NCBI GenBank assembly: GCA_043822925.1
Contig: JBDRBF010000084.1
Location: forward strand, 1-21,253
Source: a bacterium
GTDB taxonomy: Bacteria; Babelota; Babeliae; Babelales; RVW-14
Direction of reading: 5' to 3'
DNA: 21,253 nucleotides
Position 1 is the first letter of the stretch. Every line of letters starts with the position of its first letter. The translations under genes were made by a program, and so were the position numbers. Positions 1,711 through 17,856 of this stretch are shown here, in pieces. Under the pieces are notes generated by a model, which was not told the DNA's origin, ran no database searches, and saw only the letters and a program-made list of their open reading frames with translations.

Positions 1711-1740
1711 AAGCGGGGCAGTTTTTAAACTGCCCCGCTT
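1711..1740 (-). terminator. Intrinsic terminator of adk, possibly bidirectional between convergent genes
   Basis: Perfect inverted repeat AAGCGGGGCAGTTT-TT-AAACTGCCCCGCTT, followed on the minus strand by TGTTTTGTTT, just downstream of the adk stop. Confidence 0.85.
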
Positions 1741-1763: not shown

Positions 1764-2537
1764 TTATTTGTTAATTATTGTCTGCTTAAAATCAACAAAT
1801 ACTTCGTCAGGAGAGCCTTTAGGTTCGAAGTCGACAATTATTGTGCGAGCATTTCTGTAGAAACCTAAAAGATCATCTTTAAATTTAGCAAAAACGCTTA
1901 AGCGTTCACGAACGACTTGTTCGTCATCATCTTTTCTTTTGATAAGAGCTGAGCCGCATTTATCACAGACGTTTTCTTGAGCTGGCTTTTTACTGGTTAA
2001 AGAGTAAATAGCTTGGCATTTTTTGTTTTCACAAACAAGTCTGTTTGAAAGGCGTTGGACAATTTCTTCTTCAGGGACATTAAAGTTGATAACTTTAAAT
2101 GAGACGCTCGCAAAAGCTTTATCTTCTTTTAAGATGTTTTGGAGTGCTTCTGCTTGTGCTTTTGTGCGTGGGTAACCATCTAAAATAATATCAGTTTTTT
2201 TGTCTGCAATAGTTTGTTTGAGCCACTGGAAAACCATGGTATCAACAAGTTCGTCTGGTACGAGTTTGCCAGCATCGATGTATTTCTTAAGTTCTTTGCC
2301 AATTTCTGATTGATCCTGAATATGTTGTCTGAAAAGATTTCCGGTCGAGAGGGAGGTGAAGTTTAATTCGCTGATTAAACGTTCAGCCACTGTTCCTTTG
2401 CCACAACCAGGGGCACCAAAGAACGAGTAGAGATTGGTTGTCATAGTTTGATCTCCTGAAGATTTAAAGCAGCTTGGGAGCATGCTTACTGAAAGTAATA
2501 AAAGTGTGAAGAGTAAAAATTTGTTTTGAATTTTCAT
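1764..2537 (-). CDS. adk: Adenylate kinase (long type, Zn-binding LID) with an N-terminal lipoprotein-like signal peptide; alternative internal start at 2444
   Basis: P-loop GAPGCGKGT, STGNLFR, GKLVPDE, LDGYPRT, LID C-x4-C-x16-C-x2-C, RKDD...RL. Leader MKIQNK-FLLFTLLLLSVSM-LPSC. AGGAG (2457-2453) lies 8 nt before the ATG at 2444. Confidence 0.95.
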   Translation of the reverse strand: MKIQNKFLLFTLLLLSVSMLPSCFKSSGDQTMTTNLYSFFGAPGCGKGTVAERLISELNFTSLSTGNLFRQHIQDQSEIGKELKKYIDAGKLVPDELVDTMVFQWLKQTIADKKTDIILDGYPRTKAQAEALQNILKEDKAFASVSFKVINFNVPEEEIVQRLSNRLVCENKKCQAIYSLTSKKPAQENVCDKCGSALIKRKDDDEQVVRERLSVFAKFKDDLLGFYRNARTIIVDFEPKGSPDEVFVDFKQTIINK

Positions 2538-2555: not shown

Positions 2556-2592
2556 AATCTAGGATCCCAGATTTAAACTGGGATCCTGGATT
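2556..2592. terminator. Stem-loop between hppA and adk (terminator or mRNA-stabilising hairpin, REP-related core)
   Basis: AATC-T-AGGATCCCAG / CTGGGATCCT-G-GATT around ATTTAAA, starting 3 nt after the hppA stop. Only a weak U-tract follows on the minus strand. Confidence 0.65.
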
Positions 2593-2595
2593 GTT

Positions 2596-4587
2596 TTAAA
2601 ACGTTGCCAGTAAGAGTGAAATAACTGACATGAGTTTAATGAGAATATTAAGCGAAGGTCCGGACGTATCTTTGAATGGATCGCCTAATGTGTCGCCGAC
2701 TACAGCTGCCTTATGAGCATCTGAACCTTTGCCGCCGAAGTTTCCTGCTTCGATGTATTTCTTTGCATTATCCCATGCGCCACCACTATTTGCCATGGTG
2801 AGTGCAAGTACAACACCTGAAATAGTTGCTCCAGCTAAGAATCCACCAAGAGCCATGTTTCCATTAGATCTAAATGCTACTTTGATAACAATTGGAGAAA
2901 TAATGGTTATTACGCCAGGTAAAATCATTTCTACTAATGCTGCTTTTGTGCTGATATCGATGCAACGTTCATAGTCAGCTTCAGCTGTGCCTTCCATAAG
3001 GCCAGGAATTTCTTTAAATTGGCGGCGAACTTCGATAACCATTTGCCATGCTGCGCGTCCGACTGAACGCATTGTCATAGAAGAAATTAAGTATGGGAGC
3101 GTTGCGCCAAGAAATAGTCCGGTAATTACGATGGGATTTTTTAGATCAAGGACAAGTATGTGTGCTTGTTCACAGTATGCTGCAAAAACAGCAAGGGCAG
3201 CAAATACGGCGGAACCGATTGCAAATCCTTTACCAAGAGCCGCTGTTGTGTTGCCTAGAGCATCAAGTTTGTCTGTAATTTTTCTGACGTCTGGTCCAAA
3301 ACCTGACATTTCAGAGATACCGCCGGCGTTATCAGCTATCGGTCCGTAAGCATCAACAGTCATGGTGATACCAACAGTAGCAAGAAGTGCTACCGCTGCA
3401 AGTGATACGCCGTAAAGACCACCAAAAAATTGATGAGAAAAGAAAACGATCATTGCGATAGTACATACTGGTAAGACAATTGATTCGAATCCAATAGATA
3501 ATCCGTAGATTAAATTTGGTCCAGCGCCAGACTTTGATGTCTCGGCAAGTCTTTTAATAGGGCTGCCACTGGTGTAATAATCAGTAATAAGCCCAATAGC
3601 AATACCGGTTGCTGCGCCAAGAAAGATAGAGCCAAAGAGATTCATATCCATGTTCATGAACCACAGGTACCAGTAAGCGCCTGCGATAAAAAATGCTATG
3701 GCTACATAGGCTGCTTGATGAAGAATTAAACCTATTCTCAATTTAAAAATAAAAGATGAAGCAAGGCCAATAAGCGATGCAATAAGGCCAATTGCGCAGA
3801 GCATAATTGGTAACGATATATATTCTAATTTTCCTGTATATGCTGTCAGCGCAAGAGCTATAGAGGCAACGACAGATGTGATATATGATTCGAAAATATC
3901 GGCACCCATGCCGGCAGTATCGCCTACGCAATCCCCGACGTTATCAGCAATAACTGCTGGGTTACGTGGATCATCTTCAGGGATTCCCATTTCAACTTTA
4001 CCAACAAGGTCAGCACCGACGTCAGCCGCTTTGGTATAAATACCACCGCCAACACGGGCGAATAATGCGATTGAGCTGGCACCAAGACCAAAACAAGTAA
4101 GAATTCTGATAAAGACAATACTTTCAGATCCAACAAAGAAGTAGAATAAGAGGCCTAAGCCTAAAAGACCTAAACTTGCCACAGCAAAACCCATAACGGC
4201 ACCACCAAGTAATGCTGTTAAGAATGCTGGGCGTTCGCCATGGTCTTTGGCTGCCATTGTTGTAGCTTCGTTTGCTTTGGTTGCAGCTCTCATGCCGATG
4301 TATCCAGCAAAAAGAGAGGTTAGAGCTCCGCATGTATATGCGCAGGCAGAAGTAAGATCTATGGCTAGAAATAGAGCTATAAATGCAATTGCTATGACGA
4401 CAGCAAGAACAGAGTATTCTTTGCGCAAGAATGTCATAGCGCCATTACGTATGAGAAGAGCAATGTGTGCGGCTTTAGCATCTGTGCTCTTGTAGTTCGT
4501 AACTTTTTTAAATATAACAGCAGTAAAAAGAAGACCTATTGCTGAAATAGCAACAAATGTGATGAGATATAACGTTAGATCTATCAT
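2596..4587 (-). CDS. hppA: Membrane-integral cation-translocating pyrophosphatase, K+-dependent, probably Na+-pumping
   Basis: Signature motifs [92 protein letters not shown]. Start placed at ATG 4587 (MIDLTLYLI), with GGAG 9 nt upstream; 663 aa. Confidence 0.96.
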
Positions 4588-4757
4588 AAAACAAGACTCC
4601 CATGTAATAGAACGACATAAATTATGGATTATTAGACAAACGAATAGGTTAGACCACCAATAATAAAAATAGAAACGCTTTTTGTAAATAGGATTATGTA
4701 AAAAATTGTGGTTAGGTATCCGTTTGCAATAAACGAAAAAAATGAGCACTATAAACT

Positions 4758-4839
4758 CCCAGGCTTTGCGTGAAGCTACGTCGGGCGCGGCAGGGTGAGC
4801 GCTCATGCTGAGCCTGAGGCCGTCGAAGAGTCGAAGCAT
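4758..4839. repeat. GC-rich composite cluster of short palindromic elements in the hppA/bioY divergent intergenic region
   Basis: CTTTGC-N5-GCTACG...GCAGG (resembling the insert at 1654-1685), a central CAGGGTGAGC/GCTCATGCTG inverted repeat, and nested CTGAG...GTCGAAG motifs. Strong GC contrast with the flanks. Confidence 0.6.
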
Positions 4840-15230: not shown

Positions 15231-15354
15231 TAAAATAGTGGCTTTTTTCTCGTGAAATTGTATCATAAAACTCACTTGATACTTGGTGTCATAATCAGTT
15301 AAGTCGCTTTTATATTAATACTTTTTGAATGTCTAGCTAAGGAGAAGGTTGCAC

Positions 15355-17856
15355 ATGTTTTGTTGCAAATTAAACGGATTTAGAATGAAGAGGGTTTCGA
15401 GGTTATTGATTGTTGTTGGGGTTGTTGGTTTTTTTGCGACACATAGTTTTTGTGGTGGCGAAGAAAAAGAGTCTCAAGAGTCTGCTTTATCACAAGATAG
15501 TGGGGGGCACGATTTTCTCGATACAAAAGAGGGGAAAAAGAGTTCGTATACTATTAAAAATATTATAGTCGAAGGTACCAAGTATACAAAAGAGGCGCTT
15601 GTTTTAAATAGTATTCCCTATAAAAAAGGCGATATTTTTGATGTGTTAAAAAGTGCTGAAGCGATTGATAATCTGTATGCTCTTGGTCATTATAATCAAA
15701 TTCGTATTGAAGGCGAAAAGCTGAGTAGTTCTGATATGAATTTATATGTTGTCGTTGAAGAGAAAAAGCTTCTTGCAGATCTTAAGATTTCTGGTAACAG
15801 AAAGATATCGACAAAAAAAATCAAAGAACAGTTAAATCTTGAAAATTTAAAAGCAATTGACGATGAAGTTTTGCGTCAAATTGCTCTTTCTATTAAAAAA
15901 ATATACAAAGAAGAGAACAGGCACTTTGTCGGGGTAAACACAAAGCTTATACCAGATAAAGAAAACCCAGATAAAGTAGTAGCCGAAGTTAAGGTTACTG
16001 AGGGTGCCTCTTCTTCTATTGCGCGTGTCCATTTTGTTGGAAATAAGCATTTACCAGATAGAGTCTTGAGAAATAAGATTTTTACACGGGAAAATTGGTT
16101 ACTCAGTTTTACAGATGGCGCCGGCGTGTATAAAGACAGTGAGCTGGATCTAGATAAGCATCGTATTATTTATCAGTATAAAGATCTTGGTTATCTCATG
16201 GCTAAAATAACAAAAACTGATGTAAAATTTTCAAAAGATAAAAAGAAAGTTGATATTACGTTTCATATTCAAGAAGGAGCTCGTTATATAATTAATAGCG
16301 TTAAAGCTCCAGGCGACGAGATATTTACAGAAGACGAAATTAAGCCTTTACTAGGACTGGAAGAAGGTAAGCCATATTCTCAAGGTAAAATTATAGCGAC
16401 GTTGAGCCGGTTACGTGATTTGTGGGGTATAAAGGGATACATCTATGCAGATGTCTATCCAGAAGTAAAGCCTGATGAAAAAACAAAAAAAGTGGATATT
16501 ACTTTTAATGTTGATCGTGGCAATAAGATGTACGCTAACCGTATTATTATATCTGGAAATACGATTACGCGAGATAAAGTTATTCGTCGTCGTATAGATA
16601 TTGTTGAAGGAGATTTAATTACGACGCCAAAAATGCGAAATTCGCAATCAAGCGTTGAATATTTAAGTTTCTTTAAACGAGATGGCGTTAACTGGAAAAT
16701 GCATCGTATAGATGATACAACAGCAGATCTTGAAATGAATGTTCAAGAAGATAAAACTGGTTCATTAAATTTTCAACTTTCTTACGGTACTGATCGTTAT
16801 AATCCAAGAAGATCAATAAAGGGGATGATCAGCGTAGAAAAACGTAATTTGTTTGGTCTGGGCTGGGATGCTGGCGGATTAATTGAAGCAAGTAGGCATC
16901 GTCTTAAACGTATAGAATCACACTTTTTTGATCCAAGTATTTTGGATAGTGATGTATCTGGAGCATTTAGTTTTTATAAGCGATGGGATGAATACGATCA
17001 ATGGCGTAACGTATCTCCTGCGCCGTTGCAAAAAGTTCTTGGTGTTTCAACTAAGTTTGGGTTTCAGTTGCCTCAAATAGATCCACGCTTACAGCTTATT
17101 TTGGGTGTAGGTATTGAAGATATTCGCAATAATCACCCACATGCTATTGGTGATTTAAGAAATATATTTGAGCCAATAGTTCGCCGTACTTTCCAAACAG
17201 GTTTTTATGACTGGGTCAGTGCAGAGCTTATAAAAGATACGCGTAATCATCAAGTTTATCCAAATCAGGGCTACAAAGTTGAACTCATAACCAGAGCTGC
17301 GTTACCTGTTATTAATCGTGAATTCGGATTCTTTAATATAGAAGCAGCACTCAGTACATATATGGCTTTGATTGGTTCTGATAGTCTCGTGCTGGCTAAC
17401 CGTGTAAAAATTGGCCGTATAGATTCTTTTGGTGGTAAGAATAAACATAATCAAAATTTTGCGGTGCCATATAAAGAGTTGTACCACATGGGCGGCCAGG
17501 GGACTATCCGTGGACATACATGGGGTGGCGTTGGGCCTGCTTGGGTGACTGGTGAGCCTCTTGGTGCTAAAAATATGATCCAGTGGAACACTGAGCTTAT
17601 TTTTCCATTAATTCCAGATTATTCTATGAAGGCACATTTATTCTATGACGCTGGTGCTGGCTGGAGTACCCCTTTATATAGCCAAGATGAGAATAAGTAT
17701 GTTAAGCGAAATAATTTTGATCTTCGTCACTCTGTTGGTTTTGGTATTAACTTGATGAAACCGATTCCAGCTAAGATTGATTGGGGATTTAAGCTTGATC
17801 GTAAACGGGGCGAATCGCCACATGAGTTTCATCTGGATATGAATTACGCCTGGTAA
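15355..17856 (+). CDS. bamA: Outer membrane protein assembly factor BamA (Omp85)
   Basis: Signal peptide; POTRA-type segments (IKNIIVEG, LKISGN, VHFVGN, IIISGNTITRDKVIRR); TGSLNF at the barrel start; RNLFGLG; DTRNHQVYPNQG; GGQGTIRGH (loop 6); FYDAG; C-terminal MNYAW. AAGGAG at 15339-15344. The start may be 15349, 15355 or 15385. Confidence 0.95.
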   Translation: MFCCKLNGFRMKRVSRLLIVVGVVGFFATHSFCGGEEKESQESALSQDSGGHDFLDTKEGKKSSYTIKNIIVEGTKYTKEALVLNSIPYKKGDIFDVLKSAEAIDNLYALGHYNQIRIEGEKLSSSDMNLYVVVEEKKLLADLKISGNRKISTKKIKEQLNLENLKAIDDEVLRQIALSIKKIYKEENRHFVGVNTKLIPDKENPDKVVAEVKVTEGASSSIARVHFVGNKHLPDRVLRNKIFTRENWLLSFTDGAGVYKDSELDLDKHRIIYQYKDLGYLMAKITKTDVKFSKDKKKVDITFHIQEGARYIINSVKAPGDEIFTEDEIKPLLGLEEGKPYSQGKIIATLSRLRDLWGIKGYIYADVYPEVKPDEKTKKVDITFNVDRGNKMYANRIIISGNTITRDKVIRRRIDIVEGDLITTPKMRNSQSSVEYLSFFKRDGVNWKMHRIDDTTADLEMNVQEDKTGSLNFQLSYGTDRYNPRRSIKGMISVEKRNLFGLGWDAGGLIEASRHRLKRIESHFFDPSILDSDVSGAFSFYKRWDEYDQWRNVSPAPLQKVLGVSTKFGFQLPQIDPRLQLILGVGIEDIRNNHPHAIGDLRNIFEPIVRRTFQTGFYDWVSAELIKDTRNHQVYPNQGYKVELITRAALPVINREFGFFNIEAALSTYMALIGSDSLVLANRVKIGRIDSFGGKNKHNQNFAVPYKELYHMGGQGTIRGHTWGGVGPAWVTGEPLGAKNMIQWNTELIFPLIPDYSMKAHLFYDAGAGWSTPLYSQDENKYVKRNNFDLRHSVGFGINLMKPIPAKIDWGFKLDRKRGESPHEFHLDMNYAW

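Follow-up and report, generated by a model that had tools for sequence, protein, structure and literature searches.

How does a bacterial gene for adenylate kinase (Adk), a textbook cytosolic housekeeping enzyme, come to open with what reads as a lipoprotein signal peptide, and what becomes of the usual start codon that lies behind it? The question is raised by contig JBDRBF010000084.1 (assembly GCA_043822925.1), all 21,253 nucleotides of which form the window analysed here. The contig belongs to a metagenome-assembled genome of the Dependentiae (Babelota in GTDB; 1.52 Mb in 86 contigs, 37% guanine plus cytosine (GC), 92% complete); those homologues that bear names are 'Candidatus Dependentiae' or 'Babeliales'. 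Our answer, to which we assign a probability of about 0.55, is that adk is a two-start gene, from which an exported, membrane-anchored isoform and a cytosolic isoform would both be made. On the best reading of its history, this gene is the sole adk of the genome, has been relocated from the secY-adk-map arrangement, and has had a Sec-type, lipoprotein-like signal added in front of its original start; an otherwise ordinary Adk would thus carry a targeting signal that is both unusual and conserved, and probably also a second start.

Residues 40–230 of the encoded protein match the Pfam family ADK (PF00406) at 3.2e-42 (144.6 bits, cut-off 26.8), and the family ADK_lid (PF05191) is matched at 6.5e-11 (42.4 bits, cut-off 26.6). 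Long-type bacterial Adks with a four-cysteine zinc lid (PDB 5g3y, 1zin, 1p3j and others) share the catalytic domain over query residues 39–253, with E values from 7e-44 to 2e-36, and their P-loop, nucleoside monophosphate (NMP)-binding region, lid cysteines and arginines are all kept here. Across the clade to which the protein belongs, R70, R124, R162, R166, R212, D203/D204 and the cysteines C169, C174, C191 and C194 are invariant, and the product, to all appearances an ordinary Adk, is expected to catalyse the reaction ATP + AMP = 2 ADP. Because residue 5 of the solved enzymes aligns to query residue 39, Met32 corresponds to a normal Adk start, three residues upstream of the usual N-terminus. 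The solved long-type enzymes have no leader and begin about four residues before the alignment, whereas this adk has 31 extra N-terminal codons with the features of a signal peptide. In the protein database, the nearest homologues have recorded starts at MTTQVYSFFG (P0002) and MTTTIYSFFG (P0005), at the position of MTTNLYSFFG in this protein, whose Adk sequence runs from M32 into TTNLYSFFGAPGCGKG.

The leader itself resembles that of a lipoprotein in most respects. Lys2 and Lys6, an uncharged core from Phe7 to Met19 and a cysteine at position 23 follow one another on the minus strand within 2537–1764 as the earlier note on this DNA had described, and codons 1–32 of adk exactly fill positions 2537–2442 (Table 1). 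The net charge is +2 before the hydrophobic run and 0 over the 15 residues after it, values that fit an N-in topology. As in lipoproteins processed by Lgt and LspA, a basic n-region leads into a hydrophobic core and then into a small residue plus cysteine; the differences lie in the proline at −2 and in the passenger, which is normally a cytosolic housekeeping enzyme. The usual lipobox consensus is [LVI]-[ASTVI]-[GAS]-C, to which leucine at −3 and serine at −1 conform and proline at −2 does not. The earlier note was right to call this proline non-canonical, and the pattern [LF]-P-[AGSM]-C recurs on the Adk leaders of relatives as LPAC, FPAC, LPGC and LPMC.

The two candidate start codons, labelled ATG1 and ATG2, stand in different contexts. 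Both the coordinates and the alignment to PDB entries agree with the earlier claim that a strong Shine–Dalgarno (SD) motif, AGGAG, precedes Met32 by 8 nt at the place where a normal Adk begins. ATG1, at 2537–2535, is preceded by GCCGAAAGAAATATA and has no SD-like motif by the criteria used, in keeping with the weak context first ascribed to it. A lack of this kind is shared by 58% of first ATGs in the genome.

Table 1. Features of adk and of other elements of the window, with positions counted from the first letter of the window
Feature	Position	Strand	Remarks
adk open reading frame from ATG1	1764..2537	minus	257 codons + stop
n-region MKIQNK (two Lys) and hydrophobic h-region FLLFTLLLLSVSM	2481..2537	minus	codons 1–19
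Lipobox-like L20-P21-S22-C23	2469..2480	minus	Cys23 codon TGC = 2471–2469
Linker FKSSGDQT	2445..2468	minus	codons 24–31, from Cys to Adk core
AGGAG Shine–Dalgarno motif	2453..2457	minus	within linker, 8 nt before ATG2
ATG2	2442..2444	minus	Met32 codon, candidate start of leaderless cytosolic isoform
Adk catalytic core	1848..2420	minus	P-loop GAPGCGKGT, NMP-binding region, Cys4 lid
Intrinsic-terminator-like hairpin	1711..1740	minus	13-bp stem then T run, just after adk stop
Intergenic hairpin	2556..2592	minus	from H+-translocating pyrophosphatase stop to ATG1; 15-bp stem with one mismatch, 7-nt loop, no T run
H+-translocating pyrophosphatase gene	2596..4839	minus	upstream of adk; Pfam H_PPase 1.6e-241
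BamA gene	15349..17856	plus	three POTRA stretches + Omp85; Pfam

Such a layout is not what this genome offers by chance. A crude set of its open reading frames (ORFs) has 1026 first ATGs and 6047 deep internal ATGs. An SD-like motif at a distance of 4–12 nt precedes 41.5% of the former and 4.2% of the latter, and a motif of the AGGAG type at the same distance precedes 90 (8.8%) and 13 (0.2%) of them, respectively. A strong-SD ATG within the first 80 codons occurs in 178 ORFs; a stop-free in-frame ATG lies 18–60 codons further upstream in 10 of them, and the extension so defined is hydrophobic in four, adk among these. Against this AGGAG background, and with so few open and hydrophobic extensions, the layout is rare here. 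Three other genes, on contigs C66, C58 and C46, likewise have a strong-SD ATG after an open, hydrophobic in-frame extension that carries its own ATG, and are possible further two-start genes or possible miscalled starts.

Comparable leaders are found across the phylum. A search of 261 Dependentiae genomes gave 303 PF00406 matches, spread over 243 of them. The analysis took in 150 of these matches; among the matches listed, 52 had an open frame of at least 245 residues, and of these 51 were read and 50 parsed. With three genomes added from outside the match list and one, G112, removed, leader-bearing Adks are present in at least 44 of the 261 genomes (G117, locus L076, not being in the set), distributed over at least 27 genera and at least seven GTDB families. 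This count is a lower bound because 150 of the 303 matches were examined. Under a simple rule of our own making rather than a trained predictor, at least 27 genomes have a lipobox-type cysteine and at least 17 a membrane-type helix that has no cysteine. The apparent leader of G112 was rejected as an artefact, its open frame reaching the 3′ end of secY at the canonical site.

Narrower and wider samples give a similar picture. Nine Adks from 40 related genomes, none of them linked to secY, have a hydrophobic leader that ends in cysteine (LPSC, FPAC, LPAC, LSGC, LSIC, LPAC, CSGC, LASC and IITC), and the P-loop lies at least 28 residues from the N-terminus in 48 of the best 120 database homologues. 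In two third copies, G172:C5 (L208) and G177:C163 (L209), the Adk core is immediately preceded by a classical cleavable signal, with ...VAWA|HKEIL and ...SLQA|HKEIL, respectively, at the junction. Genome G172 also holds an adk pseudogene with several stops on its contig C13 and has no intact leaderless copy. In metagenomes at large, such leaders occur at 2 of 80 Adk loci: L090, with a Dependentiae-like GC content, and L098, with 51% GC and an LLAAC lipobox that is followed by a Cys/Pro-rich, Gly/Ala-rich linker. Because the GC content of L098 is unlike that of Dependentiae, exported Adks may exist in other lineages. The ESM Atlas yielded generic Adk clusters only.

The internal start is likewise found in relatives. 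Of 43 leader-bearing genes, 18 have retained an ATG at the point where leaderless Adks begin, 6–15 codons ahead of the P-loop, and 16 of the 18 have an SD-like motif 4–12 nt upstream, against a background of 4.2% at internal ATGs of the present genome. The motifs are AGGAG (twice), AGGAGG, GAGGA, AAGGA and AGGA, with AAGG or GAGG in the remainder; the exceptions are G170, where GAGG lies at about 13 nt, and G003, which has no SD-like motif. The linkers of these relatives are unconserved in sequence, yet a glycine codon stands 2–4 codons before the internal Met. Their leader ATGs, unlike ATG1, often follow a strong SD.

The presence of an internal ATG is related to whether the genome has another adk. 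No second adk was found in 15 of the 18 genomes with an internal ATG, and of the 24 genes without one, 14 are accompanied by a second adk and 10 are not (Fisher p = 0.011, or 0.046 with one count per genus, kin not being independent; the calls of 'no second adk' rest on single searches of incomplete genomes, and G208, whose second copy is an 83-residue fragment, is omitted). This distribution is consistent with the old start having been retained by genes that have to provide the cytosolic enzyme as well. The present genome has one PF00406 match, and the second adk whose existence the earlier note had considered is not among its genes.

Genomic position and phylogeny both set the leader-bearing enzymes apart. 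On contig C8, secY and map are directly adjacent with no adk in between, from which we conclude that adk, unlike the usual gene, has left its canonical place in secY-adk-map. Among the relatives, 13 leaderless Adks scanned with Pfam lie in that arrangement, as do three more judged by ORF layout, and four leaderless Adks are located elsewhere; the corresponding numbers for leader-bearing Adks are 0 of 9 in the sample and 0 of 18 further loci with neighbours scanned. The neighbours of leader-bearing adk genes vary, and include an AMP-forming ligase at L012 and L018 and secA in family f7, among others. In four f7 genomes (L169, L170, L171 and L173) secA immediately precedes the leader-bearing adk on the same strand. 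In 14 genomes a leader-bearing Adk is accompanied by a leaderless one, and there the second copies score above the Pfam cut-off.

In a FastTree phylogeny of 174 rows, most leader-bearing Adks form one clade of 62 rows with a Shimodaira–Hasegawa (SH)-like support of 96, and a quick IQ-TREE run on 99 rows returns the same clade with 43 rows and a support of 89 in the SH-like approximate likelihood ratio test (SH-aLRT). This clade spans families f1, f5, f7, f20 and f21, and the cleavable-signal copies are nested within it among the lipobox and helix forms; the leaderless copies of the genomes concerned lie elsewhere in both trees, grouped by family. The Adk of the window is outside this large clade, in a group of 10 rows (SH-aLRT 95) together with the canonical-lipobox proteins P0003, P0004, P0007 and P0013, the cleavable-signal-like P0019, and P0002, P0005, P0010 and G037, which are recorded as leaderless; the canonical leaders of this group read LLLSGC, LFLAGC and LFQGC. 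Families f3 and f4 contribute a third lipobox group. The starred branches of the tree require at least six changes of lipobox label, and, because its backbone is not resolved, it allows for several gains as well as for a single old gain followed by many losses. A metagenome scan for DNA of the nearest homologues gave 80 loci of at most 46% identity, none of which belongs to the P0002–P0007 group.

An exported Adk would find a suitable envelope in this organism. LspA (1.8e-30) and Lgt (1.6e-41) are both present above the Pfam cut-offs; in this 92% complete genome LolA was not found, which is no proof of absence, and Lnt reached 21 bits only, below its cut-off. BamA, encoded in the window, shows that an outer membrane is present, although PMC4776705 describes a 'degenerated envelope' for the phylum. 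Inner and outer membranes and a periplasm are reported for a cultured relative in PMC6561590. Dependentiae are described as energy parasites that use ATP/ADP translocases (PMC4776705). The window contains none, as the earlier note had stated, and a check of the whole genome finds five open frames of the NTT/TLC type, on contigs C55 and C83.

From these sequence features we infer use of both starts, export, lipidation and a function for the outer isoform, as follows. Translation from ATG1, which has no SD and is probably weak, would give a 257-residue precursor whose leader inserts in an N-in/C-out orientation. The leader would be cleaved and lipidated at Cys23 or, should LspA act poorly on LPS-C, would remain in place as a membrane anchor, and in either case the Adk domain of the long form would be held at the inner membrane on its periplasmic side. 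From ATG2, the ancestral start with its AGGAG 8 nt upstream, the ordinary 226-residue cytosolic Adk would be made. The most likely function of the outer isoform, by analogy with mitochondrial AK2, is equilibration of adenine nucleotides (2 ADP = ATP + AMP) beside the ATP/ADP translocases.

Several observations weigh against the two-start reading. ATG1 stands without an SD-like motif (upstream letters GAAAGAAATATA), and proline at −2 is found in only 3 of 145 relaxed lipoprotein-like N-termini of this genome. In ten genomes (G011, G016, G017, G153, G154, G158, G159, G057, G058 and G172) the sole adk is leader-bearing and has no usable internal ATG, and these genomes are left unexplained by a simple model with two isoforms; either cytosolic Adk is dispensable there, or the leaders leave the enzyme in the cytoplasm. 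The proposal of the earlier note, an exported plus a cytoplasmic isoform, is supported by relatives in its sequence-level part and leaves these ten genomes unaccounted for. As for the conservation among orthologs that the note wished to see examined, the leader recurs in at least 44 genomes and the internal start in 18 of 43 genes; the nearest homologues, P0002 (67–68% identity) and P0005, are recorded as leaderless (protein records alone). Loss of lid cysteines in exported forms was looked for and not seen: all four are retained in all leader classes, so that the core bears no mark of periplasmic life. No NTT gene lies beside any examined leader-bearing adk, and the Ndk of this genome has no leader, which leaves a periplasmic nucleotide module unsupported on that side. 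In the helix class without cysteine, the mean charge is +2.0 after the helix and +1.5 before it, with the N-terminal flank less positive than the C-terminal one in 17 of 35 sequences. By the positive-inside rule, the positive flank marks the cytoplasmic side, and the domain of this class accordingly leans towards facing the cytoplasm. Signal-like N-termini are, moreover, common in the phylum, since putative signal peptides are given for 44% of coding sequences of a published Dependentiae genome in PMC6561590.

Of the rival explanations, the one that survives best, although we regard it as unlikely, is that only the Met32 product matters: the upstream 31 codons would be an evolutionary leftover of an Adk that was once exported, or an extension of it that is translated weakly, and an ordinary cytosolic enzyme is what the gene would now specify. 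The strong SD of ATG2 next to none at ATG1, the unusual proline of the lipobox, the MTT starts recorded for P0002 and P0005, and the need for a sole adk to supply the cytosol are all as this explanation would have them. The same is true of G037 (L011), the nearest leaderless Adk from a whole genome and a member of the same clade, in which a stop codon stands shortly before GTG-KYTIFLLSFLAEG, a downstream ATG follows AAGGA at a distance of 7 nt, and the leader looks decayed. The leader of the window, however, is intact, with its ATG, two lysines, 13-residue hydrophobic core, small residue plus cysteine and no stop; an open in-frame ATG extension is found in just 10 of 178 comparable genes; canonical leaders persist in the same clade; and a contig from another sample that covers 2364–2632 differs at one base, outside the leader.

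A less probable alternative, which we hold to be doubtful, reverses the roles of the two starts: the full-length exported or anchored form would be the functional one, and the internal ATG with its SD a not-yet-eroded relic of the fusion, in a cell almost or entirely devoid of cytosolic Adk that depends on nucleotide transporters. The ten genomes with a leader-bearing sole adk and no internal ATG, and the five NTT paralogue frames here, are in line with it, as is genus g12, in which a second adk copy exists only in G022 and sits on a very long branch (0.96–1.02), as if decaying. It is difficult to reconcile with the SD-like motif retained at 16 of 18 internal ATGs within otherwise unconserved linkers, with the concentration of internal ATGs in genomes without a second adk, and with the strong avoidance of AGGAG-type motifs inside genes of this genome (0.2%). 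Least probable, and improbable in our judgement, is an uncleaved N-terminal anchor that holds Adk on the cytoplasmic side of the inner membrane, next to the translocases and the H+-translocating pyrophosphatase (H+-PPase), converting AMP + ATP into exportable ADP, for although the more positive after-helix flanks of 17 of 35 Cys-less sequences (at the extremes, MD...KTRK and MNK...KKKTK), the sole-adk genomes without an internal ATG, the H+-PPase gene that adk follows here and the AMP-forming ligase genes adjoining adk at L012 and L018 would suit it, a small residue plus cysteine at the end of the hydrophobic run in at least 27 genomes has no role in such a topology, cleavable-signal copies are nested in the same clade as the helix forms, the charges of the leader described here favour N-in, and a separate leaderless Adk is present in 11 of 16 helix-class genomes (G208 left out), a usual coexistence that argues for a different compartment for the helix-class enzymes.

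How does the proposed outer isoform compare with Adks already known to act outside the cytoplasm? To our knowledge, the secreted Adks of pathogens have no recognisable signal peptide or lipobox, being ordinary cytosolic proteins that are released; the targeting signal of the present enzyme, in contrast, is encoded and conserved. The likeness is that of an Adk acting outside the cytoplasm, and secreted Adk is named as a virulence factor in several pathogens in PMC2680645. With mitochondrial AK2 and its yeast counterpart Aky2, the likeness would be one of location, between two membranes and next to an exchanger of ADP and ATP; Aky2, moreover, is described in PMC2680645 as the product of one gene that is found in the intermembrane space and partly in the cytosol. 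The two differ from the present enzyme in that they are eukaryotic and that their import involves no lipoprotein signal; the comparison implies no homology other than that of the Adk fold, and in an ATP-importing parasite the net nucleotide flux would run in the opposite direction.

Extended to the phylum, the two-start reading leads to a bolder and clearly more tentative hypothesis, namely that Dependentiae run a bacterial counterpart of AK2. An outer-face Adk near NTT would turn exported ADP into ATP, which is re-imported, and AMP, so that both phosphoanhydride bonds of host ATP are harvested; lipobox, signal-anchor and cleavable signals would have been fitted to Adk repeatedly; and in genomes that have lost the cytosolic paralogue, such as this one, both compartments would be served by a single mRNA with two starts. 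If true, periplasmic nucleotide chemistry would be part of energy parasitism across many genera of an ATP-importing phylum, the arrangement would be a convergent parallel to mitochondrial AK2, and adk would offer a clean natural case of a single bacterial gene that reaches two compartments by means of two starts. Gene callers record close homologues either from the leader or from the internal Met, so that the feature is easily overlooked. Our literature search, which covered main texts and not the supplements in which Adk may be listed as secreted, found no paper on an Adk that bears a signal or acts in the periplasm, whether from Dependentiae or from other organisms. The term 'adenylate kinase' is absent from the text of the Chromulinavorax, Babela, TM6 and Babelota papers; the text of PMC4776705 has no occurrence of adenylate, signal peptide, lipoprotein or periplasm, and that of PMC6561590 none of kinase.

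The immediate surroundings of adk complete the description. The upstream H+-PPase gene is possibly co-transcribed with adk; no sigma-70-like promoter was found in 1650–2750, a result that does not count as evidence of co-transcription. Its true start is probably later than the one listed, near MIDLTLYL, because the Pfam match begins at ORF residue 101. The hairpin between the two genes is present as a single copy in the genome and does not belong to a repeat family, and folding of the mRNA over 2400–2620 gave no clear signal on the accessibility of the SD before ATG2. DNA contig X3, from another sample, spans 2364–2632 with a single differing base, 2588 G>A, which perfects the stem of the intergenic hairpin. 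As X3 is the one contig from other samples that covers the leader, there is no variation from which selection on the leader could be read. The only contig from metatranscriptome run X9 is 167 nt long, covers 2301–2467 with its last 21 nt inverted, and stops short of ATG1; contigs of this kind cannot show starts. On the plus strand at the beginning of the window, two ORFs without a Pfam match, 95–610 (171 residues) and 778–1626 (282 residues), have signal-peptide-like N-termini ending in ...FVQA, and their products may be paralogous secreted proteins.

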